A DNA stretch of 64,000 bases from GCA_000165345.1 CM000430.1:128001-192000; one strand, 5' to 3'; shown: positions 14 through 47,565, counted from the first letter of the stretch. Numbers and translations are program-made. The notes: generated by a model not told the origin, from the letters alone.

Positions 14-5557
<5,544 letters not shown>

Positions 5558-12714: not shown

Positions 12715-12737
12715 TTGGCGCCCGACTGTGGGCGCGC
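12715..12737. promoter_or_regulatory. E2F-like GGCGCC core followed by TGTGGG box (TTGGCGCCcgacTGTGGGcgcgc)
   Basis: Direct read. Located 0.6 kb upstream of the minus-strand K/S-rich gene. Confidence 0.5.
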
Positions 12738-13402
12738 ATTTTGATCTTCAAGTGGTTAACCACAGTAACATGGCATTAAGTGTATAAATTAAGTTAATAA
12801 GGAAGAATGTGAGCACTAAAAAAAAGATATATTGGGAGAGATGATTTTTTTTTTTTTTTTTAAATCACTCAAGGTCCCAACCCACATTTGAATGTAATAC
12901 AACTCAGTCAAAATAAATCAATAGAGCACTCCTTTCTTTTTTCTTAGATATATTTTTGTGAATTTTTTCATCGACCCTTTGATAGTAAAATTTGTTTCAA
13001 TAACTCTATCATCAAGAGATGTCAACTTTGATCAAATGTAAGATGTAATACAAATGTTTAGTTTTTCGCTATCGTGGCTAATACATAGGAATTGTGAATG
13101 ATAGGCTTTTTAATTAAACGAAAACGTAATATTTAAAACAAGTATAATCAATTTATTAAGAGAGGAACTATTTAAAAGCTGTAACTTTTATCTATTACTA
13201 ACTTGTGGTTGTAGCTTCTTTTGAATAATACCTTCCATCAAAGTTGAAAAATCCAATCATAATTCACTTAAATTAAGCAAAGAAGAAAAGATCTTCGACA
13301 TGTGGAAATATACATATCCGTTACTAATTTAAAGTAAGTGTTTACGCTCGGTGAATTACAAGCTAAACCGGCTGATTATTCCCTACCTCTGATTCATTAC
13401 GC

Positions 13403-13706
13403 TTATCCCATGATCTTTTCCTTAAACTTTCCGAGAATATGAAGTACAATAACTATTGACATGTATGCCAAAGTCATTACGAGAACAGTCATTGGCCCAA
13501 GCTTGAGTCCTGGTGTATCATCAACGTAGTAACTCATCAAATTTTGAGCGAGGTTCTCTCTGCTGCTAGTTACAGAAGATGCCAATGCACGGCGTTGTCT
13601 AATTTATAGAAAGAAAAAAGTGAATAAAGATTCTCACATCCTATTATTTCTTAGCTTACCTCATTGTACTTGATCTTGCAATAGAACCTTTTCCTGCTGC
13701 TCCCAT
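13403..13706 (-). CDS. SEC61B: Sec61 beta subunit (Sbh1), two exons 13660..13706 and 13403..13598 with a 61-nt intron 13599..13659
   Basis: The C-terminal exon encodes YVDDTPGLKLGPMTVLVMTLAYMSIVIVLHILGKF (the Sec61beta TM motif). The track 'M' at 13585 is actually TTG. Upstream, ATG at 13704-13706 opens MGAAGKGSIARSSTM-R, followed by a GTAAGC donor. The acceptor CTATAAATTAG joins in frame to QRRALASSVTSS. Confidence 0.8.
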
Positions 13707-14543
13707 ATTGGATGAGCTTCCTGTTGATTGCGTTGAATTCTTTGTCTAAAAGAATAAGATGATTAATTTAAATATGAACTCTAAATAAGTTTATCATTTC
13801 GAGTTTAATAAACGAAGAGAACCTCCTTTGAAAATAGAATCTCTCCTATATGGAAATAATCCCAGCTAATATACTCGAAAAGATATAAAGATAAATATTC
13901 AAATGACTTACCATCTCTAATTCAATAAAATCTAAACGTTCTTAAAATTCCAAAGAATAAAATATTAGTTTTACTTTCTTTTAATTTTTCTTTTTTTTCC
14001 CCAATTTATTGAGCTTTATCCAGATATGGTAAAATATCTTTTCCCCTCTTATAACTCTATGTTTTTTTATTTTTGTCAATACACTCAAAAATTGAGTGAG
14101 TCTTGCGGTACCTCTTCAATTAATTAATTATTTCTTTATATGAATATACTATATAGTTATTAAGTTACCTTATTTAAATTTTTTTTATTCAAATACCCCC
14201 ACTATTCACTTTCCCGCTACACTTACCCTGAATTTACCGCCAAATTGCAAAACATTAAAATTTCGAAATATCCCATTAATCGAAATAGGAAATAATGACG
14301 ATAAAAATGCAGGCCCCACAGTTTTGGCGGCACATTTTGAGATTCTATTAATGTTAAATTTATAAAGTTAACTAAAAATGGAATCGAAAAAAGAATTGGG
14401 TAAGAAAACAAAATTTTAGAAAAAAAGGAAGAGATGGTCATTCAGCCGTATTCGAATGAGTTTGAAGTACTCCACTTCCCAATTTTTTTAAAGAAAAAAT
14501 CAACTAAATTTGATTATTTTGGTATATATTCCGACAAATAATA

Positions 14544-15749
14544 ATGAACATTGAACTTTCCAAGCCTTTATTAAAAACATACACTCAGGATCAAATGTAT
14601 TACAATAGTAAAAAAAATCAAATAAGTGATACTAGTAGTAATCAAAGCTATGAGAGCCCTGATTTAAGTGACCGAATTGAAACAAAAGCATCCGACTTCA
14701 TTTCATATAGCAACAGAAATCCTCCGAATATACTAATGGAAAATGGAACCTTAAATATAATGCATCACTGGGATAGACTCAGCCAATTCTTTGAATTTTG
14801 TTTACACGACAGATTCCATGTTATGCTTTCAATGAGTTGGGGAAGTCTTATTTTATTTATATTTCTCGTATATATTCTACTTGCAATTATCCTAGCAATA
14901 ATACATTTTATTATTACATTTGGTGATGCTGCTAATTGTATTGGGAGCGATAAATTTGGGAATATAGAATATTTTTTCTTTGCTGTTGAAACTATGTTTA
15001 GTATTGGCTACGGTTCCCCAAGATCACCATGTTGCTTAATTACCAACTACTTTACTTCAATTACGGTTATTAGTGGTTGCATCTTGAATTCAGTTACTGT
15101 TGGAATATTCTTTACAAAATTTTCAGAATCAACTTCTAGAAAATGGTCAATTTGTTTCTCCAAAGAACTTTGTGGAATTGGATTTAAAAGTATAACTCCT
15201 GAAGAAGTACTTGAAGTACCTAATCAATCAAACTTACCACCTATCACTTCATATGCCTTTACTAAGGCAGCTGAAACCACCTGTGAGAATTGTCCATTCA
15301 TTATTTCATTCAGACTTTTTAATATCTCTCAAGAACCATTTTTTTCGCCTGATCTTAAAATTTTCATTCTTATCCACGGTGACAACGGCCCATATATCAC
15401 AGAAATTTCATCATACAAACTTGATGTTCCTCTAGAATTTATGGAAACTCCTATCACTGTTTCGATATACTCAAACCAGCCTGACTCCCCTCTTAAAAAC
15501 TTTACTATTAATCATCTTAGAAATCAAGGGCATCTCATTGAACTCATGATATTGCTACGCTTCTCTGATAACAGAACATCAAAGAATTTGGAGGTCAGGA
15601 AGACCTGGAGACTTAATAATGTCTTCTGGGGATATAAATTTTCTTCTATTATTAAGAAACAAGTTTATCATGGCGGAACTATGTACAAAGTCGGAATTTC
15701 AGATCTCGATAACATTGAGCCTGTTATCTCCGGTACTCCATTTCTCTAA
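14544..15749 (+). CDS. Two-TM potassium channel with GYG selectivity filter, Kir (inward-rectifier)-like
   Basis: M1 is WGSLILFIFLVYILLAIILAIIHFII. The pore helix and filter are FFFAVETMFSIGYG. M2 is followed by FFTKF...SICFSKE, resembling the Kir post-M2 F-K-x-AETL-FS region, and by a beta-rich cytoplasmic C-terminus of about 230 aa. Confidence 0.6.
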   Translation: MNIELSKPLLKTYTQDQMYYNSKKNQISDTSSNQSYESPDLSDRIETKASDFISYSNRNPPNILMENGTLNIMHHWDRLSQFFEFCLHDRFHVMLSMSWGSLILFIFLVYILLAIILAIIHFIITFGDAANCIGSDKFGNIEYFFFAVETMFSIGYGSPRSPCCLITNYFTSITVISGCILNSVTVGIFFTKFSESTSRKWSICFSKELCGIGFKSITPEEVLEVPNQSNLPPITSYAFTKAAETTCENCPFIISFRLFNISQEPFFSPDLKIFILIHGDNGPYITEISSYKLDVPLEFMETPITVSIYSNQPDSPLKNFTINHLRNQGHLIELMILLRFSDNRTSKNLEVRKTWRLNNVFWGYKFSSIIKKQVYHGGTMYKVGISDLDNIEPVISGTPFL

Positions 15750-15855
15750 TTTATAGATCATATTTGCAAATACATAAGTATATAATTTAACTTGACTACC
15801 TTAGCTATTTCTTTTCCTTTCATCGTTTTTTTTATATTCTACAAGCAATGACTAA

Positions 15856-15867
15856 TTGGCGCCAAAA
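15856..15867. promoter_or_regulatory. Perfect palindromic E2F-type site TTGGCGCCAAAA
   Basis: Direct read. Lies in a convergent 3'-3' spacer, an unusual place for a promoter element. Confidence 0.45.
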
Positions 15868-16650
15868 TCATTTCCATGCAATACTTCCCGCCTTGTTTTT
15901 TATTTTAAAAGTTATTCATTGCCTCCAAATTAATTTTGTAACTATTCTTTAGTATCTTTTTTTTAGTAAAAAATATAATCATTGTTATAGTTTTTTTGAA
16001 ATAAAAATCAACATTGTCAACCTAAGTGTTTTCTAGTACTTTTCAAACTTGTACATGTGTTATCCACCACAAGCTACTTCAACCCTTCAATCACTTTACT
16101 CACTATTTTGTGTGGGGGAAAAATGCACACGTAATATGCATGCAAGTTGTAAATAAATAGAGAAAAAAAACTAAAATTGTAGATAAAAATAATTAACTCT
16201 CTTATATTATCACTACAATCTACTGTGCATTATTCACCCCTTCTACATGAAGTATTTAATATACTATTTATAAATCTACATATCCCAAAATGAATAACTC
16301 CAAGAAAGTAATATCCAAAATAAGAAGAGTAAGTGCTTAGTACTTTAAAATGATTACCATTCTTCATCATTTAATTCATTTGCTTGTAACAATAGCCATT
16401 AGCAACTTAATGTATTAATTATTCTTCTTAAAAACTAATAATATTAGCATTCTTCAACTTATGGCACTTTTCCCTGATCTAATTTATGTCTGAATATCAT
16501 TTATACTATATAGTTCATTTTCTATTATCAATATTGATTATATTATTATGCCTCAACATAAACTCTCCTCTCTCTCGCCCCACTCAAAAAAAAAAACTAG
16601 TCTTAATGAAAGATTAAATTCTGACTCGAGATTATCACTTATTCTTCTTT

Positions 16651-17670
16651 TTACTTTTTGTTAATAATCAATGAACCTATACAAGTTGCTAAGATCATTA
16701 ATCCTACAGTTCCAACGATCTTAAGGAAAGCTTCGCGTGATAAATGTTTAGCTCCCTTCTTGAATGTTAATTCAATCATCTCTAAAGCAGGTAATTCATC
16801 GCCAGCAATACCTTGGAATGATAAAGATGGAGATGGTAATTGAGTATTAATTGGTGATAATTCAACTTGATTACCATTTTGAATGATATATGGAACCATC
16901 TTGCTACCATCAACCTTAAATGAGCAATAAGAATCACAGTTCAAGAAAGTAGTACCTTCAATAGTTGAGTTGTATGTACCCCTATTTTGACCACTAATTA
17001 CAAGCTCAACATGAGTATCCAAAATAAGTTGTTGAACCTTCTTTAACGAAGAATCGATTGAATATGAAGAAGCCAAGTATTTGTTTCCAACTACAACAGT
17101 GAAATCATGATGTTTATGACCATAGTGTAAAGTTGCATTCAAATTTTGGAAGGCTTGTTCAGAAACTTTGTGGTCTGGGAAAGAGCTGGAAAGAATAAAA
17201 GTATCAATGAATACAAATAAAACAGTACCATCTCTTCTAGATAACACATTTGAAGTATCAGTATAGTGTGAAACATAATGATAAAAGTAATTTGGGAAAC
17301 TAAATCTTGGGAAAATATCATTATTGCTATCATAAGTTACATTATTTCTCTTCAATAGCAAGTTAGCATTCCCATTATCCCAATCAGCTTGACCCATTGC
17401 TGCGAACAATGGAATCTGGAGAGATTTTTCTGAGTAAATATTCTCAAAACAATGTTTGAAATCAATTCCACCAGGAAAGTTATCTCCAGGACTAACCAAT
17501 AATGAGAATGGAGTCTTCTCTGCTTGGGCTTTTAAAACAGAAGCTACCTTTTTTTGGTTTCCAGAACATCCATAATTTGATAATGATGCAAAATATAATT
17601 CTCCATTAACTCTATTTGAACTAACAAATATACACAAAACGATTCCAAAAACTAGAAGTAATGCTCTCAT
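16651..17670 (-). CDS. Calcineurin-like metallophosphoesterase / type-5 acid-phosphatase-like protein with signal peptide and C-terminal TM anchor (metal-binding motifs partly degenerate)
   Basis: N-terminal signal MRALLLVFGIVLCIFVSS. Motif remnants PGDNFPGGID (GDNFY-like), AMGQADWDNGN, HKHHDF (GHDH-like). C-terminal hydrophobic LMILATCIGSLII. Confidence 0.45.
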   Translation of the reverse strand: MRALLLVFGIVLCIFVSSNRVNGELYFASLSNYGCSGNQKKVASVLKAQAEKTPFSLLVSPGDNFPGGIDFKHCFENIYSEKSLQIPLFAAMGQADWDNGNANLLLKRNNVTYDSNNDIFPRFSFPNYFYHYVSHYTDTSNVLSRRDGTVLFVFIDTFILSSSFPDHKVSEQAFQNLNATLHYGHKHHDFTVVVGNKYLASSYSIDSSLKKVQQLILDTHVELVISGQNRGTYNSTIEGTTFLNCDSYCSFKVDGSKMVPYIIQNGNQVELSPINTQLPSPSLSFQGIAGDELPALEMIELTFKKGAKHLSREAFLKIVGTVGLMILATCIGSLIINKK

Positions 17671-18786
17671 CCTTTTATTAAAATATAAACAGTTGCTTTC
17701 ACTTTTTGTAATATTGTTTTATATAAGACTATAATTTTTCTTTTTCGGTAATGTGTTTCTTACTCACAATTTTTAATTAATATTTGGCTATTCAATAACC
17801 CAATAGTGGAATTCTTTAAATTCGATATTTATACTTAATTCCTAATTTTATTATTTAAAAAAAAAAAAAACCTACCTTTTTTACCTTTTCAAAATAATAA
17901 AAATGTCTTTTTTCCTTATAATATGCTTGCTTCCACCTTTTGATTAAGCCTCACACTATTTATAAACCTTGTTCCTCATTACAAAAATCAAATCTGTATG
18001 CAAGCACATCTACATACATTATTGACGACATTACGTCATTACAAATGGATCAAGTCTCCATGTACCCCATTTTACATACATTAACGTTTTGTCCTCACAA
18101 CTTTAAAAATTTAACATATGTCTCGTTTTCTTTTTTTGAATACTGTTAAATATTCGTGTTTTTTTTTTACGATCTCTTTAATTGATTTTTAACAGTTAAA
18201 TCTATTAAGATGAAAATTCTTTCTCATTTTCTTATTTTTCAATATTCCTCATCATTATCCGCATGCACAATTTTTCCCCAATTTGATGCGTGTGCACTGT
18301 GTCTTTTTTGTGAAATTTTATAACACTTAATTTTTGATATCAAGGCTTTTTTTTAATTAATTGAATCAAATATATTCGAATACAATTATCTAAATTCAAG
18401 CAGTATTTGAATCTTCATTTCAAGAATTTTGAATCCATCTTTTTTTTCCTAAAAATATGTGATAATTTGTTTGTCCACATAAGTGGGATATAGAAAAAAA
18501 ATTATGAAAGAGGGGAAAAATGCACGTAGAAAAATTAATAAATAGGAGAAAAAATTATAGCCAAGGGCTTGATTAGTAAAATATATTCATCAACGTAAAT
18601 TCAATATGCCTAATTATTGCATATATGTATAGAAGTAACGTAATTTGTTAATTTTCTTTTGCATCTTTCTCATTGCAATTTTGTAATTTTGAATTAATGA
18701 ATTTGATTTACAAATCATTGTCTTTTTTTTACCCTATTTGTTTTTACTCTTTTATTGATATTAATTAAAAAACCAATTACGTGTTG

Positions 18787-18806
18787 TTGGCGCCTACTTA
18801 TGTGGG
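18787..18806. promoter_or_regulatory. Bipartite TTGGCGCC-N5-ATGTGGG element
   Basis: ttggcgcctacttatgtggg, 350 bp upstream of the SUN-domain gene, in a divergent promoter. Confidence 0.5.
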
Positions 18807-19154: not shown

Positions 19155-21233
19155 ATGAAGAATAAAAATAATAAAAAAAGAATCCTGGTTGAGAAGGAAA
19201 AAAATTATCATGAGAAGGCAAACTTTGAGATTTGGAAAACAGATGGAATTTATAGAAATGAAAATGATAGAAGTTTTATGTTTGGAAATAGGAAATTGTC
19301 AAATATGAAAAAAATGCAAATCGATTATTACCCCTATAATGAGAAGTCAAAAATTGAGAATGAAATAAGAGGAAATGTTTTAATTAATACTAGAAAAGAT
19401 ACGGAATCAAGAAAAAAAGCCAGTTTAAGAATATGGATATATCGCAAATTAGGGAAAATATTGAATTATATTTTTAAAATTATTAAAACACTCAGTTTAT
19501 TCTTAATAATAGGTACTTTTCTATTTATTATTTGGAACTCAATTAATCATTTTGGACAATATGGAGAAAGTAAGATGATTTCTACTCAATTATTTGATCA
19601 ATTAATAAAAAAGGAAAAGCTTGTAAATTTAATTAAACAAAAAGAAAGTAATGGTTTATTTTCTGCAGATTATTATGATGAGACAGTAAGTTTTGTTGAA
19701 TTCCAGGAAAAATTTGAAGAGATTGAAGATCAAGTTATTGGATTAAATAAAAAAATTGCAATTTTAGCAGAAATTAATGAGTTTTCAAAAATGAATAGAA
19801 GTAATTTAGAACGTGATTTTCGTGAATTAATAAATAACAAGACATTCATCCTTGAAAATGAAATCATTGAATTAAATACAAAGCTTTTAAAAGAAATTAA
19901 ATCTGTTAAAAACGAAAGTTCAACAATATTCAAAAATTTTAATCGTTCGCTGAATGATATTTTAACGAAAGAGAAGAATCAAATTATTTATAAAAATAAT
20001 CATCCAGAGATTGAAAGCCAAATACAATTAATTATTAGAAATCTAACAGAGCACGAGAGATTTTATTTGAAATTGAGAAATGATTTAGAAAATATTTCGG
20101 AAGAAGTTAAGTTAATTGACGAGGCACAAGATGTTTTAAGGAGTTTGATTTGGTCAATGAATAAAAGAAATGAAGAATTATCAACTTTTAATTCAGAAAA
20201 TACAATAGGAAATTCTCAGCTTGAAGCTTTACAAGGTCAAAGCTCAGAAATTGGAGTTTACCTTAAAAAAATACTTGGGACAAAATTGGAAATGCAAGGT
20301 TATAATCAAGTTGACTGGGCACAATCTAGTATGGGAGGAAAAGTATTAAATCCTAAAAGTAATAAATTCTGTGAGGCAAATAAAGATAATAATAATAATA
20401 GTAATTCAATAATCATTAAGAGTTTGAGATACTTTCAAGATCAGCTTTTTAAGTTTTTGATTCAAAAAAACCATAGAACAACAACATTAAAAGTTCCCAT
20501 CTATAATTCTGAGTGTTTTGAGCCCAATCAACTTATCAAATCAAATCAAGAAAAAACTATTGGAAATTGTTTACTTGCTGAAGTTGGTACTAATATTGAT
20601 ATACAATTATCTGTTTTAATTAATGTAACATCAGTGGGAATAGATCATATTTTATTTCCCTTACAATATGATAATGGAGAAACTGTCCCAAGAAAATTTT
20701 CTGTTAAATGTATAAAAGGGAGCTCAATTGAGGAATACGAATATGGTCATTTTATGTATCACTATCCTCAAAATAATCAAGGTCTTGAAATTTTTCAGGT
20801 TAATTCAAATCATTTATGCAACATAATTAGATTTACAATTCACTCAAGTTATGGTGACAAATATTTTTGTTTGTACAAATTGAGAGTATATGGTGAGCAG
20901 GTTAATAATAACATTGAATTTGTTTCTGAGGTTAAAAGAAATTATTTTTTGAAATTATTTTGGAAAATAACCAGAAAAATAACAATTGCTCTTAGAAATG
21001 AAATATCTAATATGAATATTATATTATTAAATTGTTTTAATTATATTAAAGAGAACTTAAAAGTAGAAAATAAAGAAAAAATTGAGTTTGAAGAAGATAA
21101 TAATGATATAATGTTGGATAATGATGTTGAGATTGATGAAGATAAGGATGAATATGTACCAAATTATGGTAATTTTTCAGAAAGTAACAAATTCAAAACA
21201 AAAAATGATAAAAGAAGGAGAGAAATTGAGTAG
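19155..21233 (+). CDS. SUN-domain nuclear-envelope protein (TM + coiled coil + C-terminal SUN domain)
   Basis: TM segment LSLFLIIGTFLFIIW, then a long coiled coil, then VDWAQSSMGGKVLNPKS ... IRFTIHSSYGDKYFCLYKLRVYG, matching the SUN-domain beta-sandwich ends. Confidence 0.6.
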   Translation: MKNKNNKKRILVEKEKNYHEKANFEIWKTDGIYRNENDRSFMFGNRKLSNMKKMQIDYYPYNEKSKIENEIRGNVLINTRKDTESRKKASLRIWIYRKLGKILNYIFKIIKTLSLFLIIGTFLFIIWNSINHFGQYGESKMISTQLFDQLIKKEKLVNLIKQKESNGLFSADYYDETVSFVEFQEKFEEIEDQVIGLNKKIAILAEINEFSKMNRSNLERDFRELINNKTFILENEIIELNTKLLKEIKSVKNESSTIFKNFNRSLNDILTKEKNQIIYKNNHPEIESQIQLIIRNLTEHERFYLKLRNDLENISEEVKLIDEAQDVLRSLIWSMNKRNEELSTFNSENTIGNSQLEALQGQSSEIGVYLKKILGTKLEMQGYNQVDWAQSSMGGKVLNPKSNKFCEANKDNNNNSNSIIIKSLRYFQDQLFKFLIQKNHRTTTLKVPIYNSECFEPNQLIKSNQEKTIGNCLLAEVGTNIDIQLSVLINVTSVGIDHILFPLQYDNGETVPRKFSVKCIKGSSIEEYEYGHFMYHYPQNNQGLEIFQVNSNHLCNIIRFTIHSSYGDKYFCLYKLRVYGEQVNNNIEFVSEVKRNYFLKLFWKITRKITIALRNEISNMNIILLNCFNYIKENLKVENKEKIEFEEDNNDIMLDNDVEIDEDKDEYVPNYGNFSESNKFKTKNDKRRREIE

Positions 21234-21295
21234 AATTTATTAAAAAAAAAGAAATTCTGAACTTATAATATTTGTTAATAAGTTAAAATATCCTT

Positions 21296-23216: not shown

Positions 23217-24329
23217 ATGAGTGAAAAAAATAGAAATACAGAGGTTATTGGTAAAACTTCAAATTCAACATTATATGAAAAGAGATTAGGATTATATGTA
23301 TTAATGGGTTCTGTATTATATATTTTAGCAATAAAAAATAAGCTTGAAAAAGGTTGGTTAGATACTCCTTATTCATGGATGCTGATACTATTTAGAGCTG
23401 GACCAATAGGAGGAATGATTTTAATGATACCTTATATGATTTCAAATTTAAGGACTCAAATAGAAAATATGTGTGAAACTTTAAGACTTTTTCATATTAA
23501 ATATCAAAAAAAAGAGCCTCTTACAATAGCTTTAGAACTTTTCCCAGATCTAGATAAACAATTCAATATGATGCAAAGTATGAGAAGATATATAGTACTA
23601 GGACTATTTTATTTTTGTATTGGAGAAAGTTTGAGCGAAATTTCTACTCAATATTCCAAAAATTCCAATATTTTTTTTCAAGTAATTCCAATCTCTGCTT
23701 CTTTATCACGTTCTATGGGAACTTACTCTTTTTGTAAATCAATTATATATGACTCAAAAAATACACGTAATCTTGTGCATGTTTTTGGCGCCACAACTGC
23801 ATGTATTTTGACATTTTTTGTATATATATTAGGAATATATATAAGCCATGAATCATTAATTGATGGAGTGAGGATGATATTAAGTCAGAGTTTGGTTGGT
23901 GGGGGGTTGGAAAAGGACTTTTTGAGAATATGTATTTACTTGGAATTATTTGTTCAGAGTATATTATTATCAGAATGTGTAATACGTAGGGGAAAAAATG
24001 AATATGCTTCTTTTGCTTCAAGAATATCTCCTATATTGGGCTCTCTTTTAATGATTATTTCTTTAGTATTAAGATGTTTACATTTGGAAACTAAAATGGT
24101 CCCATATTACATTCCATATTTGGAAATAGGTCCATATGTTTGGGGTTTGTTTATATTTATTCATTGTATAGCTTTTTATATTCGATATGATGATCAAGGC
24201 AATAATAGTAGAGATGAAGAAAATATTGTTTATATGAATAATAAAGTTGGCGAACAGATTAATTCTAAGCAAAATTATAATAATAGAGTTAGTTCTGAAT
24301 CTGTAACTATACAGAAAAAGAATCAATAA
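23217..24329 (+). CDS. Multi-pass membrane protein, hypothetical
   Basis: 370 aa with at least 7 hydrophobic helices and an ATG start. No conserved motif recognised. Confidence 0.45.
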   Translation: MSEKNRNTEVIGKTSNSTLYEKRLGLYVLMGSVLYILAIKNKLEKGWLDTPYSWMLILFRAGPIGGMILMIPYMISNLRTQIENMCETLRLFHIKYQKKEPLTIALELFPDLDKQFNMMQSMRRYIVLGLFYFCIGESLSEISTQYSKNSNIFFQVIPISASLSRSMGTYSFCKSIIYDSKNTRNLVHVFGATTACILTFFVYILGIYISHESLIDGVRMILSQSLVGGGLEKDFLRICIYLELFVQSILLSECVIRRGKNEYASFASRISPILGSLLMIISLVLRCLHLETKMVPYYIPYLEIGPYVWGLFIFIHCIAFYIRYDDQGNNSRDEENIVYMNNKVGEQINSKQNYNNRVSSESVTIQKKNQ

Positions 24330-37498: not shown

Positions 37499-40400
37499 TT
37501 ATAAAGCTGAGAAATGTCCTAAATGTCTTATAGATGGCCTGCCATGAGGACAGTTCCAAGGCGACTTTAATGTACTCATAGTTTTAACAATACTTTTCAT
37601 CTTTGGAAGATTAAGATCATCTCCAATCATAACAGCACTTCTACAAGCTCTAAAATTAATTATTTAAGTAAAAAAAAAAAGAAGATATACGTATATGAAT
37701 AAACTTACTTGGAAGCAAGTATTGACCAAATCCTTCTTGGTCTTGGAACAATACCTGATGGACACCATAACGTGACATTAGTATTTTCTTGGTCTCCAGT
37801 TGATACTGAAATTGAGTCTTCTTTCTCTTCTTCTTCTTCCTCTTCTTCTACTTCTTCCTCTTCTTCTAATTCTTTGGTTTTCTTCTCCATTAGTTGTTTA
37901 TTTTGTCTACATTCTACACTGATATTAGAGGAAATCTGTCTTGGAAGATCTAAAATTTTTGACTTGGAATCATCAATAATAGATACTCTCACTTTATATT
38001 TATTAATTTGGGAAAGTAAATCCAAGAAATCAATTTGTTTCAATGGAATACCAAGAATTACTGGTAATTGAGTAAGTTGAATTCTAGATCCAATTTCACT
38101 ATTACTATTAAATATAAATCTGAACCCATTTTGCTCAAAGATATCTTTATAACTAATTACTAATTGTTCTTGAGACGGAGTTAAGGATACAGAAAGTGGA
38201 GAAATAAGTTTTTGAGTTTGGATATTACTTAAATCACTATTTAACTTCTCAAATCGAGCCTTTTCATCAGATGCATGTTGATCTATTATAAATATATGTA
38301 ATGATTCCATCATATTTTCCCCATTTTTTTCATTATTCTTATGATTTATGTAATTTTGTTCTTCTTTAATAGAAAGTTTTGTCAAGATAAATCCTTTGTT
38401 AAATTGTCCTATAACTTGTAATTGATTAAAGAGATGCTTCTTAAAGTTAAAACAACGATTACTACTTTGATCATTTTCGGTATCTTTTAACTCAGAAACT
38501 CCACTTTCATTTTTATGAATAATTTTAGTTATATCTTCATTGGGAAGAAACTTCTTTTCATCTCTATTGACTTTTTTTTTATTAAATCTTCCACCAAAAT
38601 GTATACAAACTCCTTTACTATTATTCCATATTCCTTCTTGTTCTGTCTTGTTATACCTCAACTCCATTATTGATTCTACTGGAATACAATTCTTTAGTCG
38701 AATCTTTGTTAAGTTCCTAGGGACTACCTGATTCAAAACAACCTTACCTTTATCCGTGTCCTTTTCCTTGTACTTTTCCTTGTACTTTTCCTTTTCCTCT
38801 TTCTCTTCATTTTCCTTGTTCTTGTCTTTGGTCTTGCTCTTATCCTTGTTTTTGCTCTTATCCTTGTTCTCATCCATATCCACATCCATGCCCTCATCCA
38901 TGTTCTCGTTAAATGAAGGCAAAACAATCTTTCTTATGTTTGAATCCTTTTCTTGATTTGTTAAAAAATCATTTGGATAAAATTCTCTCAAAGATACCTC
39001 ATCTGAACGATGCCTTTTAGTTCCTATAGTCTGATGGGATAATTCTATTGATTCCATTTTTGATTCAGAAAAAGATGTATTGCTAATTTCATCTTTATTC
39101 TCACTCTCATTATTATTTTTCTCATCCTCATTAATTTTCTTTTCTCCAAGTCTTGATGACTCCTCTGAAAAGACCAACTCTGGAGCTTTGCCAGAGTTGG
39201 ATAAATTATCAGTTAAGTGATTATAAGATAAAACAACTTTATCTTTAGGCTTTTGTGAAGAAGAAATCTGAGATTGAGAAATTTCCGTAGTTAAATGATC
39301 TTGAGATGTTGATGGATAATTTAATATACTATTCTGATAACGATTCTCCATAAATTCTTCTCTTTTTATTGGAATATTGTTCTGATAAGAATCTTGAAGA
39401 AATTGTTGTATATTTTCAGCTAATACTGTCTCAACTTTTGCTGGAAGCATAACTATTCTTTTATTTGGAGTAACATTAATATCCAATAAAGATTGGGGAA
39501 GATGAATATTAATCACAAAAGCTGGATAAAGTTTTCTATTATTAAAAGATGATAAAGTTGAATGAATTGAAGAAATTACACGAGAAATTCTTTTTATTGG
39601 ATCAACTGGCCTATTATTAACAGTAAATATTTGGTGATCTGGAGATGGTCTACCTTTATCTAATGATGATATAAAACCAGAAATAATCCATTTTCCACCA
39701 ACCAAAGACTCATCTTGTATTTTTGAATCCATATTTTGTAATTTTGGAACAAAAACTTCTCCCTCCAGTTTAAAGTCTAATGAATTCCCAAGAACAGATT
39801 TACCCCATATATACTGAGCAACTTCTTTTTGACTTGATACTTTTCCTCTTGTCATAATCAACTCTGATTGTATTTGGTTACTTTGATATTTAATTTCACT
39901 TGATTCTCCTATTAACAATCTCTTATGAATCTTCTCTTTCTCAGTATCTGAAAGTGTTCTATTTGAAAGTAAAAATCTGATCATTGGATAACATATAGCA
40001 TATTCTTCTATTAATACTATTAAAGACTTTAGTTGTAATCTTATATTTCTTAAAAATTGTGTTCTTCTTGAAATATATGGAAGAAAAAGACCAATAACTC
40101 TTATTCTTGTTCCTGATTTACTAGAAAAATGATACTTATGAAATTTATCAGAATTCTGATTTTTATTCTCTATTATTAATTCCTCTATCAGACATTTACC
40201 TTTCTCAAAAACAATTTTATTTTCCTTATTGTCATATTTTGTATCAATCTCAACAATCTCTGAACTATTAATTATTGAATTCAAACCTTCTCCTCTAAAT
40301 CCTAAAGTACTTAAATCTTCATGAATGTTATCAAAATTCTCCAATTTGGATGTTACACCTCTCTCACCAATCTTATTCAAGTCTTCTATACCTTTTCCAT

Positions 40401-40572
40401 TATCTAAAACTTCAATTGTTGATGATCCAAAATCTGTTAGAGAAATTAAAATTTCAGTACATCCAGCATCTATTGCATTATCTACTAACTCCTTAATACA
40501 ATCTTGTAATTCTGTTATTACTTGCTGACTACATATTCTATCCTGGTCCTCTTTACTCAATTTCTTTAACAT
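37499..40572 (-). CDS. PMS1: MutL homologue PMS1/PMS2-type mismatch-repair endonuclease, two exons 37755..40572 and 37499..37647, intron 37648..37754 (107 nt)
   Basis: N-terminal GHKL ATPase motifs (IKELVDNAIDAG, DNGKGI, GFRGEGL). C-terminal domain with the DQHASDEKARFE (DQHAxxExxxxE) endonuclease motif. The long ORF ends ...WCPSG, then a GTATTG donor. After the TTAATTTTAGAG acceptor the frame continues ACRSAVMIGDDLN...SPWNCPHGRPSIRHLGHFSAL. These are the conserved ACR, C-P-H-G-R-P and FxxL C-terminal signatures, which lie out of frame beyond the ORF-track stop. Confidence 0.8.
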
Positions 40573-40796
40573 AGTAGAAATATTTGCAACTTTAGTTTGA
40601 ATAATAAAACCTCCATAAATTTAACTATACTATTATAATTAAATAACAATGATTCCAATAATAAATTATTTGAGATCCCCTTGTCCTATTCTCCCTCTTT
40701 TTTTCCTCCTTTATCTCCTATTGTTTATTTTATTCCATCAAATTAATATTTAAAAAAAAAAAATTCCAATAATAATGTATTATTAGGTACGCACAT

Positions 40797-40814
40797 TTTG
40801 GCGCCTAATGTGGG
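40797..40814. promoter_or_regulatory. Bipartite TTTTGGCGCC-N2-ATGTGGG element in the PMS1/PPPDE divergent promoter
   Basis: ttttggcgcctaatgtgggtt lies 225 bp upstream of the PMS1 ATG (minus) and 330 bp upstream of the PPPDE ATG. Confidence 0.55.
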
Positions 40815-41143
40815 TTTCATGTTTTTTTTTTAATATTTATTAGGAAGCCACAAGAGTGAAAGAGCATTTAAAGAAATTAATTATTTAATTAATTAAAAGA
40901 ATACAAGAAGAAAATAACACATTGAGTATTATTATATTGACAAATAGATCTGTATACAAATAACTAAATATATACATATACAAGCTTAAACAACACTCCA
41001 CACAATAGAAAAACAATAAGAGAAATTATCTCGAATAGAGATTTTTTTTTTTTTTCTCCTTCCCATGGATAAATCAGAAATATTAAATAATATCAGTTTT
41101 AGTAAATTAGGCAATTAATTTCAATAATTATTTGGGTAAAACA

Positions 41144-41953
41144 ATGAATGGAGAATTGAATAAAACCCAATATAATACAAATATAAAAACAACAAATACA
41201 GATTATTTTGACCAAATGGAGAATATTTCAGGATCAAATGTAAGAGGACGCTTGACTTACTCTGATTTACATGTCAAGGATAGCTTCTCGCATGCATATA
41301 GTAATAATAATATTACCAGATGTTCATCAAATTATAGAGAAGAAAACTTTGACAGAGATTCTGGTAGCAACATGGTAATTCTTAATGTATATGATTTAGA
41401 TGCAATTAGTGGAAGTATTAATAGATTTACAAGAGTATTCGAATTGGGAGCTTTTCATGCAGGAATTGAAATTTATGGAGTAGAATACTGTTTTGGATCA
41501 ACTAGTGATGGAAGTAGTGGTATCACAGTAAATCTTCCAAGAAGGCATCCAATACATATCTATAGAGAAAGTGTTAAGATGGGTAGAACTAACTATTCTA
41601 GGGGAGAAATTAAGAGAATTATTAACGAAATGAAGCCTTTATGGCTTGGTTCAGATTATAATATATTCAGGAGAAATTGTTTAACTTTTGCTGACGAACT
41701 TTGTATGGTTCTAAATGTTGGACAAATTCCAAATTATGTCAAACTTCTCCCTGAACTTCTTTGTCAAGCTGGAGATGGACTTGACAAAGTCACCAAACAT
41801 ATTTCAACAATTTTTGACCGTATTGCCTCTAATTGTTCTAATCTTGCAATCGTTGAAAGCGAACAAGAAGAAAAAAATGATCAATCAACGACTAATTCCT
41901 CAGGAATGTCGCCCAAAAAATTTCCTTTTGGAATTAAAAATCCCCTTTTATAA
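41144..41953 (+). CDS. PPPDE / DeSI-type (DUF862) cysteine isopeptidase
   Basis: VILNVYDL ... GAFHAGIEIYGVEYCFG ... FRRNCLTFADEL: the His and Cys dyad context of the PPPDE fold. The track start at 41132 is TTG. The first ATG is at 41144. Confidence 0.75.
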   Translation: MNGELNKTQYNTNIKTTNTDYFDQMENISGSNVRGRLTYSDLHVKDSFSHAYSNNNITRCSSNYREENFDRDSGSNMVILNVYDLDAISGSINRFTRVFELGAFHAGIEIYGVEYCFGSTSDGSSGITVNLPRRHPIHIYRESVKMGRTNYSRGEIKRIINEMKPLWLGSDYNIFRRNCLTFADELCMVLNVGQIPNYVKLLPELLCQAGDGLDKVTKHISTIFDRIASNCSNLAIVESEQEEKNDQSTTNSSGMSPKKFPFGIKNPLL

Positions 41954-41987
41954 ATATTCCTTGTTACAAGCGCATTAATTAATGACA

Positions 41988-42003
41988 TTGGCGCCCAATG
42001 TGG
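41988..42003. promoter_or_regulatory. Bipartite TTGGCGCC-N2-ATGTGG element
   Basis: ttggcgcccaatgtgg, about 500 bp upstream of the BAR-like gene. Confidence 0.45.
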
Positions 42004-42325
42004 TAAATAAAGATATGCAATGTTTGCATGTACAATTTTTAATTGAAAAAACGAGAATAAATATAATTTTAAAAGGAGAAAATAAATTAGATAAATTTTA
42101 TAAATTTCAAAAGGTACAAATTCAGGTAATTAAATCATTAGACTAAAGATTCTATTAAATTATGAGCCCTCACTTTTTTTTTCTTTTTTTGAATGAGATA
42201 GTCTGTCATTGAATTCATTTCTCCATTTTTTACGCAAAATCTACTTTTTTTAAAATTTTTAATAAATAATTTATTTTTATATATTTTCTAGAACTATTTG
42301 AGGTAGAAGGGGTACAAAGTTGGAG

Positions 42326-42342
42326 TTCCCGCCAAAAGTTCA
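42326..42342. promoter_or_regulatory. E2F-like site (reverse orientation TGAACTTTTGGCGGGAA)
   Basis: ttcccgccaaaagttca shares the 15-mer CCCGCCAAAAGTTCA with 63331..63347. Confidence 0.5.
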
Positions 42343-42495
42343 GGCTCTAAAGTTTATTAATAAGAGGAGATAGGCAGAAAAAACGATCAAGCTGAATATA
42401 CGGGCTATTATTATTTTTTTTCCTTGTAAAAATAAAAAACAATAAAATTTTAATAAAATTCTATTTACGACTTGTTGACCATTGTATTAAAAAAG

Positions 42496-43638
42496 ATGAT
42501 GAAATTTCTAAGAAAGGTACGTTAATTAGTAAGTATGAATTGGCCACATTTTACACGTAAATTTGGTCATAGGTATAGAATTAAATTTGAGCAAGTAAAT
42601 AACTCTTTTTTCTTTTAGATTTTTTATGTAAAGAAGATTGCTAATGATCCTTTAGAGTCTTTGACAGGAGAGTTGGATAATGTTTTAAAATTTGCAAAAA
42701 AAATGCAAATAGCTGTAGATAAAAGCATTACAAGTGTTACAAATCTATGTTATTCAAGAGAATTAATTCTAAATGGAATTGGAAATTTGTTTCCTCAAGA
42801 AGCTATAGAATATGGAAGCTTAATGAATTCTATGGAATGTATGGGTGGTTTAACAACAGCTAGAGAACATTTTAATGTTGATTGCGATCAGGTAAAAATC
42901 TTGATCCAGGAAATGGTTTTAAGTGTAAATAGTATCCAAAAGCGTCTAGTAAAGAGAAGAATCGCATACTCTGAGAGAATTCACTATGAAAAGAAATTAA
43001 AGAAGCGACAACAAAGAATGAATTCTGGAAAAAGTATTTCCTTAAACGATAACGTCAAATTGGATAGAACCCAAAGAAAATGCGGAGATGCTTTAGATGA
43101 GTTCACTAGAATTGATGATGATGTACAACAAGAACTCCAACAATTTTTAACAAGAAGCCATGAAATATCACTAAACATTATCTCCAAATATAACTACGCA
43201 GTCGGAAGCTTTTTCTCTTTTGTTTATTCTCATTATGATAATATGGTCAATGGAGAAATTCCAACTAATAATCTAATGATACCTGACCAGCCACAAGTAT
43301 CAATCACCAATTCTAATTCCACGCCAAATGCAGATTTAGTGGTTTCTCCAGGTAAGGTTTCTGGAACAGCCATGAACTCAGCGACATCCGTATCCACTTC
43401 TTCTTCAAACCAAGTACAATCAACGCCAAATCTCCGTCAAACTGGAAATACATCAATGGGTACCATTAACTCTCAAAAAATGGATAGCTCAGAAACATTA
43501 ACTAGACCAGCATCCACATCTACACTTAAAAAATCAGACTCAGGGTGCTTCTCTGGAGTGGAGTTTGCTTCAAGGAGAAATACAAAGAGTATGCATCAAA
43601 ATAGCTCCTCTATGGAAATTAACTTAAATAAAGCCTAA
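42496..43638 (+). CDS. BAR-domain-like (amphiphysin/Rvs-like) protein with Ser/Thr-rich C-terminus, proposed exons 42496..42516 and 42619..43638
   Basis: The track ORF begins with TTG at 42661 and is open back to a TCTTTTAG acceptor at 42618. An upstream ATGATGAAATTTCTAAGAAAG is followed by a GTACGT donor at 42517 and joins in frame. The central KRRIAYSERIHYEKKLKK resembles the BAR D-Y-D-x-x-R-x-x-YE-x-L-x-x-KK signature. Confidence 0.45.
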
Positions 43639-43748
43639 ATGATTTTTTTTAAAAAATTTTTAATTTGCACATGTATATATTTAAAATACTAGTGCTCAAG
43701 AGGTGAGAAAGAACGCGCGGGAAAATTCGGGAGAGGCAGAAAGCGATA

Positions 43749-44972
43749 TTAGCTATTCTCCAATTGTCTCATCTGTTCACATTTAAGTGAAAGTAACTCT
43801 CTAATTTGGTCAATTACCGACTTTTTAAGCCAACCTGATTCCCTTGTACATGATTCCAAAGGAACAGCCTCTTTTAATATTTTTTTAATGTGATTATCTT
43901 CTATGTTGGAAAGCTGATATAGTTGGGACCCCCTTTTTGGAGGTACTTTGAACTGCCAGTCTAAGATGGTTTCTCCCAAATCTTCTTCAACTTTAACATT
44001 GATCCCGATCCTTTTTTCTTTCAGAACTTTTCTAAGATATGGGTCCCTAAAATCCAAAGTTTGGTATATCCTCGACTCTGGATCTTTTCTTGGATCGTAA
44101 CCTAATCTACAAAGACATGCTCTCCATGGCCCGTCACTAATATTATAGCAGACCTGTGTAAACAATAATTTTCTCTTCCAAGTTGAGATTTCTGGAGAGA
44201 TTTTAGATTCTATCACTGGCCTTAGCCACAATGGCTGCTCCTCAAATAATTCTTTTAATGTGCCTAGTGCTTGTTTGTCCAGATTTATACTAGAAGATAT
44301 TTTTAACGGCATGCTTGGAACTATGCTGTCTGAATATTTAAATACTACATTCCAATACTGTTGACCCTCGCTTTTCATTTGTTCTTCCTGTTCTTCTGTT
44401 ATATCCATCATTTCTACTTCGTTTCCTCCAGATTCTACCCGAACATCCAATGCTGAGGGAGTCCCTGCTGTGTCTCCTGCTATACTAGATGCAATATTAT
44501 TGATATTTGTTGATTTATCAAAATTGTCATTAGTACTTATCCACTTGATATTTACAGGATGAGTCACTTTCGAAAATACCGCTGGAGGGATAAATGGTGT
44601 TCCAACAATTTCTTCATTAATCTCCTCGTGAATTGTCTTCTTATCTCTAAATCCTGGTGGAGGAATAAAATAAAAGTCAGCCATTTGGATAAATTGGTGG
44701 ACAAGAGAAACATCACCTATTACTCTCCACTCTATCCTCCCATTTGCATACTTCAACTTTCGTAGAAGGACTCCTGTTCTTTTCATGAAATCTGAGTAAA
44801 TAGGACGGTTATACGGATCTTCTCTACAAAACAATAGTTTCATTGGTGCTTTTGAGTTTATTGATTCCTCAATACCTTCCATACCTCCTAAAGCAAATAT
44901 TGCATTGTCCAAGTTCTCCACTCTACCAGGAATCTCAACACATACTATTGACTTTATTGGTATTTCAATCAT
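43749..44972 (-). CDS. Transcription factor IIIC subunit 5 (tau95 / GTF3C5 / Sfc1 family)
   Basis: The N-terminus IVCVEIPGRVENLDNAIFALGGMEGIEE...LLFCREDPYNRPI aligns with the human GTF3C5 MVCVEYPGVVRDV...LGGEEGVSRIY...YFRPKDPYCHPV triple-barrel region. Confidence 0.65.
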   Translation of the reverse strand: MIEIPIKSIVCVEIPGRVENLDNAIFALGGMEGIEESINSKAPMKLLFCREDPYNRPIYSDFMKRTGVLLRKLKYANGRIEWRVIGDVSLVHQFIQMADFYFIPPPGFRDKKTIHEEINEEIVGTPFIPPAVFSKVTHPVNIKWISTNDNFDKSTNINNIASSIAGDTAGTPSALDVRVESGGNEVEMMDITEEQEEQMKSEGQQYWNVVFKYSDSIVPSMPLKISSSINLDKQALGTLKELFEEQPLWLRPVIESKISPEISTWKRKLLFTQVCYNISDGPWRACLCRLGYDPRKDPESRIYQTLDFRDPYLRKVLKEKRIGINVKVEEDLGETILDWQFKVPPKRGSQLYQLSNIEDNHIKKILKEAVPLESCTRESGWLKKSVIDQIRELLSLKCEQMRQLENS

Positions 44973-45021
44973 TTACCTTTCCCTTTTTCATATCATTGTT
45001 TATGCTATATTAGACTCTGAA

Positions 45022-45033
45022 TTGGCGGGAAAC
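45022..45033. promoter_or_regulatory. E2F-like TTGGCGGGAAAC site 50 bp upstream of TFIIIC-tau95 ATG
   Basis: Direct read. Confidence 0.5.
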
Positions 45034-45700
45034 CCAAATTGCCTTTGCTTTATCCCCACATTTCGTGGCAATTAAACGTATTTGTTTTCAAAATGTTGCA
45101 TGCGCATGCAGGAATAGCTTTTGAAATATTAAAGCGTATAGAGTTTACTATAATCTAGAAATATGATCAAATAAGAGATAATCTAGCGGATGATCATGAT
45201 AATTAGAGATAATATAGTAATAGATATACTGTATAAAAAAGGTCTAACACCTGATACAAAATTAAAGTTGGAATTGTTGGAATACACACACACAAACATA
45301 AATATTTTCCTTAGTGATAGTTAGGAGGAATCAAGCTAGGCTATTTGGTTTGATAATGCAAATAAACTTCATCTAACAGAAATGGGAATAGGTGAATATT
45401 CTCATGAATGTAATTACATAAAATTTCACAAATATAGCTTCAGATATTTGATATCACGGGATTTTTTTTCGAAATCTTTGAAGGAATTAAATTAATAGAA
45501 TACACTTAAAATATTTTAATTTAAAATTTATTTAAAAATAAAACAATTTCTTAACAAAATAGGCGCCAAAGTCCCCACCTTACGTCTGTAATTTAGATCT
45601 GAGTGTATGTAAATATTACGAGGAAAATTTTGTAAAGACTGGAAGGAAAGAAAAAAAAAAAAAAGAAAAACAGGAATATTAATATTAAGAATAAATAAAA

Positions 45701-45970
45701 ATGAGTGAGAAGAAAGCAGTAATAAAAAATGCAGATATGTCCGATGAAATGCAACAAGATGCTATTTCATGTGCAGCTGCAGCTATTGAACGACACAATG
45801 TGGAAAAAGATATAGCAGCATATATAAAGAAGGAGTTTGACAGAAAGTATAATCCAACATGGCACTGCGTTGTTGGTCGTAATTTCGGATCTTATGTGAC
45901 ACACGAAACAAGACATTTTATTTACTTTTATATGGGTCAAATTGCTGTGCTATTATTTAAATCAGGATAA
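45701..45970 (+). CDS. DYNLL: Dynein light chain LC8
   Basis: 89 aa. [47 protein letters not shown] is near-identical to LC8 across eukaryotes. Confidence 0.92.
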
Positions 45971-46174
45971 GCAATGTCAAGTATATGGAAAAAAAGAGAA
46001 ATAGGGGGGAAATGCTGCTTTTAGCAGAATCTATATTGAAAAAGAGTCTAATGGAAGGATGGTGAGCTTTGAGCAGAGAAACTTATAGAAATAATATTTT
46101 GATCAAAGTTCATGTTACAAATTTTTGTGATTTAGAAAACAGCTTGAAAAACAAGTATGTTTATAATAAAATAG

Positions 46175-47443
46175 CTATTCTAAGGGTTTGACTCCATGAA
46201 CAGAGTGGAATATGATGGAAGACCTCTGAACTGGAATGGAGTTAGACCCATCATTGGCCTGGTCTCTAGTTTCGGAGCTGAGTCTGCAGGACTGGTCGAA
46301 AGTATCACAGCACGAGGAAATTAAATAAGGAAGAGTTGGATGAAATTTCAAGGATGATATACTTTCGTTGCATACTCTGATAAGATTTTTATCAGAGTCA
46401 ACTAACTGGAAGTTTGAGTTCCTCCAAAGTCGTTTCTTTGCACTTGTATCCCAAAGAAAAACACTTGCATCGCTTCCTCCTGTAGCTAAAACATTTGCAA
46501 ATTGAGGATGAAAACACACACTATTGACGGGGTAGATAGTTTCAGTCATCATAGAGTTATCTTTGGTTCTGTGGCACTTAAATGCATAATTATCTTTAGG
46601 ACTTTCTTTACTATTGACCTCTCCTTTTAAAGCCTTTTCTACACTTGTGATTTGCACTCTTCCTTCTATAGAGCTTGTGGCAAACACATCTTTGTGTTTG
46701 TTTGCACAGATATTGCGTAGTTGATATTTCATGAAATTGGGGACAACTTCAGTTGGGGTTGTCGCCTCTATGCCAGATGAGAGTTTTTTCAGATTAATTA
46801 AGTTCATATTTTTTAAAGAATCTCCCACCAAGAGCCATTCTTCATTGTATGAATAATCCATACAAAATACCTTACCAGGAAGGGAGATTTTGGATATTTG
46901 AGAGCCAAAACTGCCTTCATTAACACAGGTTAATAGAACTTCTCCATTCCAATCCCCACTAGCCAGTATTGAACTATTTTCCAATAAAGAAAGACATCTT
47001 ACGGGAGCCAAGTGTCCTACTAACTTTCTCGGACTATAGAGAGAATCTTGCAAATTAATAACATCTACAGCTTCGTTAAACCCTCCAAAAAATATGGTTG
47101 AATCATTCTTAAATTTGCATGCAAGATAAATATACTCGCACTGAAGACTTTGTAAACACTTTCCCGTAGATATATACTTTGTATTTTGTACTGAGGTTGA
47201 AGTATTTTGCAATTCATCAGAGCGTTCTATTGACTCGTTGGAAGGGTTATACTTAAAATTATCATTTAAGCTCGCCCCATAAGGTATCTGAGGGTCGTAA
47301 AATTTCACACTCTTGTTCCAACAAGTCAGTGCCAAAAGGCAACCCTCGTTCTGACCAAGTATTTCTTGCCTATTGTAGCTTTTTATAACATCTATTGAAC
47401 CGATTGGTTCCTCAGGACATTCTGAAAGAAAATAGCTCTGCAT
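46175..47443 (-). CDS. WD40 protein of the Bub3/Rae1 family (likely mitotic checkpoint Bub3-like)
   Basis: YAFKCHR ... IYPVNSVCFHPQFANVLATGGSDASVFLWDTSAKKRLW is the hallmark C-terminal block of Bub3/Rae1. Several WD repeats lie upstream. Confidence 0.65.
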   Translation of the reverse strand: MQSYFLSECPEEPIGSIDVIKSYNRQEILGQNEGCLLALTCWNKSVKFYDPQIPYGASLNDNFKYNPSNESIERSDELQNTSTSVQNTKYISTGKCLQSLQCEYIYLACKFKNDSTIFFGGFNEAVDVINLQDSLYSPRKLVGHLAPVRCLSLLENSSILASGDWNGEVLLTCVNEGSFGSQISKISLPGKVFCMDYSYNEEWLLVGDSLKNMNLINLKKLSSGIEATTPTEVVPNFMKYQLRNICANKHKDVFATSSIEGRVQITSVEKALKGEVNSKESPKDNYAFKCHRTKDNSMMTETIYPVNSVCFHPQFANVLATGGSDASVFLWDTSAKKRLWRNSNFQLVDSDKNLIRVCNESISSLKFHPTLPYLISSCCDTFDQSCRLSSETRDQANDGSNSIPVQRSSIIFHSVHGVKPLE

Positions 47444-47528
47444 CGCCAGAGTTTTGTATTGTCTTTACCTTTTGTCCTCTTAATTCCACCTTTTTACTAG
47501 CAATTCTATTGACTAAAGAAAACAAGTG

Positions 47529-47565
47529 TTGGCGCCTTATGGCGGCACACTGGGTTTGTGGGACC
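47529..47565. promoter_or_regulatory. E2F-like cluster TTGGCGCCttATGGCGGcacacTGGGTTTGTGGGac in the Bub3-like/alpha-SNAP divergent promoter
   Basis: Direct read. 90-130 bp from each ATG. Confidence 0.55.

Follow-up and report, generated by a model that had tools for sequence, protein, structure and literature searches.

The window analysed here is a 64-kb stretch of the 9-Mb Cryptosporidium parvum genome (GCA_000165345.1, CM000430.1:128001-192000), whose intergenic spacers carry a recurrent pairing of an E2F/DP-type core (GGCGCC or GCCGCC) with a G-box-like TGTGGG motif, in about seven oriented copies (Table 1). The two motifs genuinely go together, in part since ancient times, but a role as a cell-cycle switch is not supported. 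The window is about 30% G+C, with 32% of the sequence non-coding, and is dense with long, intron-poor open reading frames (ORFs). Its gene map was built from Pfam scans and from gene calls on orthologous contigs. It includes a SUN-domain protein (19155-21233) that matches its counterpart in C. parvum Iowa II at 100% identity, and the mismatch repair protein PMS1 (37705-40572, minus strand), which shares 94% identity with that of C. hominis. A simple list of ORFs misses several genes that are small or spliced, namely dynein light chain, Sec61beta, exon 1 of a gene for a 294-amino-acid (aa) protein, and the first exon of a 346-aa gene without an assigned function; adding them alters the distances between motifs and genes. 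Syntenic loci were compared from C. meleagridis, chipmunk genotype I, C. ubiquitum, C. canis, C. felis, C. ryanae, C. bovis and C. muris; these 12 orthologous loci (L001-L012) contribute no independent promoters.

E2F-type cores and the adjoining TGTGGG motif

GGCGCC occurs 11 times in the whole window, against 0.56 copies expected from shuffles, and ten of these are intergenic; the remaining copy, at 23787, is coding and was rejected as a promoter site. An initial annotation of this DNA had described a bipartite promoter element, GGCGCC-N2-5-TGTGG, in four copies plus a looser fifth, with GGCGCC cores at 12717, 18789, 40800, 41990 and 47531. All five quoted sequences are present, and the positions are correct except for 40797, which is one too high (the TTTT run starts at 40796). 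Three matches to the proposed core are found (0.00 expected). The site at 18789 has N6 to TGTGG and conforms only if the optional A is included, giving N5 to ATGTGG. The one at 12717 consists of two E2F cores in tandem (12717-12722 and 12731-12736), and the GG of TGTGGG belongs to the second core, GGCGCG. The looser fifth is likewise a tandem E2F pair, with TGTGGG another 10 nt beyond. Two oriented copies with a GCCGCC core (8334-8353 and 14314-14331) and a reversed copy (45562) had been left out of the set.

The assignment of GGCGCC as an E2F/DP-type core is supported. The sites match the published E2F-like motif 3 (DTTGSCGCCH, with a T/A-rich flank; PMC3734150): the cited sites read TTGGCGCC or TTTTGGCGCC, and extra copies read TTTGCCGCC and TGTGCCGCC. 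Motif 3 is over-represented in 114 expression clusters, and the GGCGCC-type E2F motif is the most over-represented known upstream motif of C. parvum (PMC3734150). E2F motifs have been reported upstream of 161 of the 200 expression clusters (PMC4117751), and the motif predominates in peaks of open chromatin (bioRxiv 10.1101/2025.01.17.633476). The second half had been put forward as the site of a partner factor. Its adjacency to the core is non-random and is conserved at some loci, but TGTGGG itself is already published, as motif 2 (DTGTGGGG), which resembles a G-box, is over-represented in 38 clusters and is bound on protein-binding microarrays by the ApiAP2 domain of cgd8_810 (PMC3734150). 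Three AP2 domains, that of cgd8_810 and two more, bind the core G[T/C]GGGG (PMC4117751).

TGTGG lies 0-8 nt from GGCGCC in 4/20 outward flanks, and none of 5000 random draws of non-coding control DNA reached this number. In a family-wise control, any G+C-rich 5-mer reached four in 4/5000 draws, so the adjacency exceeds chance even when the post-hoc choice of word is allowed for. Seen from the other half, TGTGGG is concentrated in non-coding DNA (11 of the 15 sites in the window, p = 0.0014), as is GTGGGG (10/15, p = 0.0067). A GGCGCC or GCCGCC core ends 3-7 nt 5' of five of the 11 non-coding TGTGGG sites, on the same strand, where random controls gave a maximum of 3 in 20,000 draws. Seven of the 11 have any such core within 60 nt, and five of those seven fall in one 5-nt oriented window. 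When the second word is either TGTGG or GTGGGG, non-coding DNA holds seven pairs in the order E2F>TGTGG and one in the order TGTGG>E2F. The order within the module is nearly always the same in side and strand, and a TGCAT motif (AP2_1) often lies within the next 10-30 bp.

Table 1. Paired modules, other E2F-type sites, added genes and copies of the dispersed 10-mer (positions counted from the first base of the window, except in the last row; N, spacing between core and TGTGGG)
Feature	Position	Strand	Context
TTTTGGCGCC-TAA-TGTGGGTTTCATG	40796-40821	+	Best copy; E2F core 40800-40805; TGTGGG 40809-40814, N3
GCCGCC-AAAAC-TGTGGGG, then CCTGCATTTT (TGCAT, AP2_1-like)	14314-14331	-	GCCGCC variant of E2F motif; TGTGGG 14320, N5
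GCCGCC-TTTTCGG-TGTGGGG	8334-8353	+	Convergent 3'-3' spacer, nucleotide-sugar transporter/TCP-1; TGTGGG 8347, N7
TTGGCGCC-TACTTA-TGTGGGTTAA	18787-18810	+	354 nt upstream of SUN-domain ATG; 1131 nt from acid-phosphatase gene; TGTGGG 18801, N6
TTGGCGCC-CGAC-TGTG-GGCGCG	12715-12736	+	171 nt upstream of 294-aa gene exon-1 ATG (12546, minus); TGTGGG 12727, N4
TTGGCGCC-CAA-TGTGGTAA	41988-42006	+	37 nt past PPPDE stop; 506 nt upstream of 346-aa gene ATG (42496)
TTGGCGCC-TTAT-GGCGG tandem E2F pair, with TGTGGG (47557-47562)	47529-47562	+
Reversed copy GGCGCC-AAAGT-CCCCAC (45562-45578), then ACGTCTGTAATTTAGATCT	45562-45597	+	139 nt upstream of dynein light chain ATG (45701)
GTGGTTAACCAC, perfect palindrome	12752-12763		In conserved block GATCTTCAAGTGGnnnnCCACAGT/GATCTTCAAGTGGTTAACCACAGT (12745-12768), just past E2F pair
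Solo GGCGCC	10394-10399		176 nt upstream of TCP-1 chaperonin ATG; no TGTGG nearby
GGCGCC ... CCATGCAA ... CCCGCC	15858-15892		Convergent 3'-3' IRK/acid-phosphatase spacer; kept in C. canis only
GGCGCC-N8-CCCGCC pair	52356-52375		Divergent 366-aa gene/LCCL-protein promoter
Solo GGCGCC	61919-61924		116 nt upstream of SUI1 (eIF1) ATG
Coding GGCGCC (Gly-Ala)	23787-23792	+	Conserved multi-pass membrane protein gene (23217-24329)
Sec61beta	13403-13914	-	ATG 13914; intron directly after ATG
294-aa gene, exon 1	12496-12546	-	ATG 12546
346-aa gene	ATG 42496	+	True ATG, in the added first exon
Dynein light chain	45701-45970	+	89 aa
ATGTGGACAA, exact copies	1208-1217(-), 1266-1275(+), 8079-8088(+), 18471-18480(-), 52645-52654(+)
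ATGTGGACAA, orthologous loci	L004 9650-9658, L005 9690-9698, L007 18780-18788, L008 9332-9340, L010 13625-13633

Conservation of the modules and other sites in the window

The best copy, which is conserved genus-wide, lies in the divergent promoter between PMS1 (ATG 40572, minus) and a gene for a PPPDE peptidase (ATG 41144, plus). An alignment of seven species, with C. muris as the most distant from C. parvum, shows no change in GTGGGTT or in the CGC of the core, the spacer around them being otherwise diverged and poorly alignable. The spacing is 3 nt in six species, and the block GGTACGCACATTTTGGCGCCTAATGTGGGTTTCATGTTTTT is essentially identical in four, with one base differing in C. ubiquitum. 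In C. felis, TGTGGGTTTCATG is kept beside a degenerate core, while the site reads GGCGCG-TAA-TGTGGGTTTCGTG in C. ryanae and AGCGCC-AA-GTGGGTT in C. muris. A non-coding RNA as the explanation of the conserved block was rejected: Rfam gave no match at gathering score, and the window contains no tRNAs.

The GCCGCC copy on the minus strand occupies the divergent promoter of Sec61beta (ATG 13914, minus) and IRK (ATG 14544, plus), where the pattern CCGC-N5-6-TGTGGGG-YYTGCATTTT is kept in C. meleagridis, C. ubiquitum, C. canis, C. felis and C. bovis, and was not observed in C. muris. Another conserved G-box, tACCCCCACtattcac in plus-strand reading (14197-14215, minus), is found in the same spacer with E2F-like CCGCC cores 10-40 nt off, and is kept from C. 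parvum to C. bovis; the promoter thus holds no fewer than two G-boxes, together with two or three E2F-like cores. The reversed copy upstream of dynein light chain is kept as GCGCCAA-N3-6-CCCCAC-ACGTCTGTAATTTAGATCT in all seven species, including C. muris. The adjoining ACGTCTGTAATTTAGATCT (45579-45597) is itself near-invariant in these species, far above the surrounding spacer, and could be a start-site or 5' untranslated region element, or the site of another factor.

At orthologous promoters the E2F core is mostly kept across 4-7 species; it is lost at the SUN promoter in C. ubiquitum and degenerate at the PMS1 promoter in C. felis. Conservation of the SUN module is only loose. The orthologous promoters read GGCGCC-aag-TGTGGGTAA in C. 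canis, GGCGCC-cacac-GTGGTTAA in C. meleagridis and GGCCAC-aaatat-GCGGGTAA in C. ubiquitum; the second half varies (TGTGGGTTAA, CGTGGTTAA, TGCGGGTAA, TGTGGGTAA), and nothing recognisable is present in C. felis, C. bovis or C. muris. At 41990, GGCGCC is kept in six species, with TGGCGCAA in C. muris. The tandem pair at 47531 sits in a 228-bp divergent promoter between a WD40 (Rae1-like) gene and alpha-SNAP; the pair is kept in close species, whereas retention of its TGTGGGA is limited to C. meleagridis, chipmunk genotype I and C. ubiquitum. The 8334-8353 copy was not found in C. canis, C. felis, C. bovis or C. muris, in loci that covered no closer species.

Two E2F-like cores are found at the 12717 place in C. 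meleagridis, C. ubiquitum, C. canis, C. felis and C. bovis. The palindrome just past this pair looks like a dimer binding site. Its GTGG-N4-CCAC is shared by species as far from C. parvum as C. bovis, and orthologues show a GATCTTCAAGTGG-N4-CCACAGT palindrome. The block containing it is about 200 nt upstream of the 294-aa gene and matches no published motif. An extended dyad, CACAT-N-GGCGCC-N-ATGTG, was also considered, as AATGT occurs in 5/20 flanks and on the far side of 12717, 40800 and 41990, but was dropped because the far-side half is not conserved past the closest species.

Among the remaining E2F-type sites, gagacGGCGCC at the TCP-1 promoter is kept as far as C. muris. Two sites (15858-15892 and 8334-8353) lie in convergent 3'-3' spacers, which contain no start of a protein-coding gene. 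Transcription of long non-coding RNAs (lncRNAs), either antisense or intergenic, may be driven from them, since E2F motifs have been reported upstream of C. parvum lncRNAs (PMC7840661). The composite pattern also occurs as GGCGGCAACTGTGGGG (49215-49236, minus) inside a coding Omp85/Sam50-like ORF (48784-50136), where it encodes LGGNCGA; it is kept in other species because it is coding, and the pattern by itself does not mark a promoter.

The dispersed 10-mer ATGTGGACAA has five exact copies in the window, and 12 with at most one mismatch compared with 4.8 expected. The ATGTGG half had been thought to overlap this motif, a link that is seen at one site only (8070-8088, GCGGG-N5-TGTGGACAA, also kept in C. 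canis). The 10-mer recurs at orthologous intergenic places in distant species: in the nucleotide-sugar-transporter/TCP-1 spacer of C. canis, in the acid-phosphatase/SUN spacer of C. felis and, in the latter species as well as in C. ryanae, close to the ATG of the PPPDE gene. One copy is 261 nt upstream of the LCCL-protein gene. It fits an unnamed motif, A[T/A]G[T/A]GGA.A, from the upstream regions of class II oocyst-wall genes (PMC3734150).

A proposed promoter module and alternative explanations

We favour the explanation that these sites are compact Cryptosporidium promoter modules, in which an E2F/DP site is followed after 3-7 bp by a G-box-like TGTGGG[G/T], and give it a probability of roughly 0.55. 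The module is probably an E2F/DP site beside a G-box (ApiAP2) site. The sequences, their non-random oriented adjacency, their position between genes and their conservation are observed, while the binding proteins and any interaction between them are what we infer. E2F/DP would occupy the GC core that marks short, often bidirectional, nucleosome-free promoters, and a second sequence-specific factor would bind the adjoining TGTGGG. The best candidates for the latter are the G-box ApiAP2 domains of cgd8_810 and cgd2_2990, with cgd1_3520 as a secondary motif. The E2F/DP footprint is about 12 bp and the cores are 3-7 bp apart, so the E2F/DP and AP2 footprints would touch, and the second factor would then cooperate or compete. 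Either could give a broadly used E2F promoter a stage-specific output.

Several observations weigh against this explanation, and the sample behind it is a single 64-kb window with some seven oriented copies. The microarray core G[T/C]GGGG is absent at the four sites first described, which read GTGGGT, GTGGGT, GTGGGC and GTGGTA, and is found only at 14314, 8347 and 45573. The spacing varies, at 3-7 nt between loci and 3-6 nt between orthologues of the SUN promoter, and a spacing that is not fixed argues against a rigid protein-protein composite. The conserved dynein light chain module carries its G-box reversed. TGTGG at 41990 is kept only in C. meleagridis (other species have CGTGG, CATGG, GGTGG or nothing), that at 12717 occurs only in C. 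parvum and is absent in every other species examined, and at the SUN promoter TGCGGG replaces TGTGGG in C. ubiquitum. A sporozoite study using the assay for transposase-accessible chromatin with sequencing (ATAC-seq) reported no AP2 motifs in open chromatin. The per-cluster MEME/AlignACE consensuses of the genome-wide motif study (motifs 2-4) contain no recurring E2F-TGTGG composite, and isolated extended consensuses there run on from a GGCGCC or GCCGCC core (e.g. GGCGCCACATAGGGGCAGG, GCCGCCAAATCTG).

The strongest competing explanation, although unlikely in our judgement, is motif crowding, in which E2F-like, G-box-like and TGCAT motifs are independently enriched in promoter cores of about 50-100 bp, with no cooperation and no spacing rule. 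In a compact genome close neighbours would be frequent, and some would be conserved because each site matters alone. The shifting 3-7 nt spacing and the reversed yet conserved G-box are as crowding would have them, and so is the position of the remaining TGTGGG sites, some at a distance of 10-40 nt from a core and others lacking any core within 60 nt. Tandem E2F pairs fall in the same 3-8 nt range (12717, 47531, 52356 and the C. canis TCP-1 promoter), and published genome-wide work found the orientation and spacing of motifs to be variable. Crowding alone does not account well for the single 5-nt oriented window that holds five of the seven TGTGGG sites with a core within 60 nt, for the 7-to-1 bias in orientation, or for the exact 3-nt spacing shared by six species at the PMS1 promoter, where their sequences cannot otherwise be aligned.

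A second possibility, which we regard as improbable, is that the TGTGGG half is a degenerate E2F half-site. The true unit would be a tandem E2F pair drifting between GGCGGG, GGCGCG, TGCGGG and TGTGGG, and TGTGGGTT or TGTGGGG would be forms bound by E2F/DP. Such drift is suggested by the 12717 site, where TGTGGG shares bases with GGCGCG and a second E2F-like core is present in all orthologues, by the GGCGG that directly neighbours 47531, by the C. ubiquitum TGCGGG upstream of the SUN gene, and by the spacing range shared with tandem E2F pairs. However, GTGGGTT at PMS1 and TGTGGGG at Sec61beta are invariant across deep divergence and never contain GCG. The central CGCG contacts are essential for E2F/DP binding, and a T-for-C change would break them. 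In addition, TGTGGGG was recovered alone as motif 2, which is AP2-bound.

Least probable of all is the view first proposed for these sites, that of a dedicated bipartite E2F-plus-partner element defining a replication and mitosis regulon, for which PMS1 and the SUN-domain protein do carry copies, and E2F does control cell-cycle genes in animals and plants, but whose specificity is unsupported because GGCGCC also precedes many unrelated genes (TCP-1, SUI1, alpha-SNAP, dynein light chain, TFIIIC-Tau95, LCCL and Sec61beta/IRK, as solo, paired or modular sites). Further copies serve the PPPDE peptidase and the 346-aa gene, the latter, downstream of 41990, being outside the set of genes named in the initial annotation. 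The WD40 protein labelled Bub3-like in that set has the mRNA-export factor Rae1 as its best match (1e-12) and is Rae1-like rather than specifically Bub3, and the BAR-like label finds no Pfam or PDB support. The presence of E2F motifs upstream of 161/200 expression clusters also speaks against a dedicated regulon.

Beyond the compact promoter module itself, it is possible, although we would put it forward only tentatively, that the oriented unit (E2F/DP, then TGTGGG at 3-7 bp, with the G-rich half always on the same side) is genus-wide and older than the split between C. muris and C. parvum, reflecting direct cooperation or competition of E2F/DP with a lineage-specific partner. That partner would be a G-box ApiAP2 or another GTGGGTT-binding protein. 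Cryptosporidium is, to our knowledge, the only apicomplexan genus that has kept E2F/DP, and if true, a genus-wide unit would give the first evidence in cis that E2F has a partner there. A 2025 review lists no E2F-interacting partners known in Cryptosporidium (PMC12246861). E2F motifs mark most Cryptosporidium promoters, and a conserved, oriented second site beside a subset of them would offer a concrete, testable way into the question of how a single widespread motif can drive distinct programmes of expression; the sites at 40796-40821 and 14314-14331 would serve as specific probes for binding and reporter work. Should the pairing fail genome-wide, the finding shrinks to instances of two catalogued motifs.

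Comparison with known motifs and systems

Both motifs and their promoter role are already known, and the pairing refines a known promoter architecture. The E2F-like motifs 3 and 4 of Oberstaller et al. (2013) (DTTGSCGCCH; TTTGGCGGGAAV; PMC3734150) have the same core and T-rich flank as TTTTGGCGCC, TTGGCGCC and TTTGCCGCC, and share with the present sites an intergenic location before many unrelated genes and in bidirectional promoters. They were published as stand-alone motifs with variable context, whereas a subset of the sites described here has TGTGGG on one side, 3-7 nt off. Motif 2 resembles the second half in the enrichment of TGTGGG(G) in non-coding DNA. The copies at 14314 and 8347 match DTGTGGGG exactly (8/8), those at 18789 and 40800 at 7/8 positions (ATGTGGGT), and those at 12717 and 41990 at 6/8, the four copies of the initial annotation differing by T, C or TA in place of the fourth G. 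No published statement linking motif 2 to an adjacent E2F site was found. A full-text literature search for Cryptosporidium with TGTGG returned only apparently unrelated papers (epidemiology, genotyping and host response), and neither the oriented close pairing nor its deep conservation at two or three promoters was found in the searchable literature.

Likenesses to RUNX-like sites (TGTGGT) and to the plant telo-box (AAACCCTAA) were set aside as partial matches, and no such factors are known in Apicomplexa. In the animal tandem of cell cycle-dependent element and cell cycle genes homology region (CDE/CHR), an E2F-type GC core is followed in fixed order by a second element a few bp off, and in CDE/CHR and E2F composite sites a partner complex modulates E2F output. 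A partner of the CHR/DREAM type was rejected for the present sites, with no CHR (TTYGAA or its complement) in any 20-nt flank of the 11 GGCGCC sites, and the genes downstream are not limited to replication and mitosis, as distinct from those of CDE/CHR. As an arrangement, however, this tandem element is the closest analogue for how the E2F/TGTGGG module may work.

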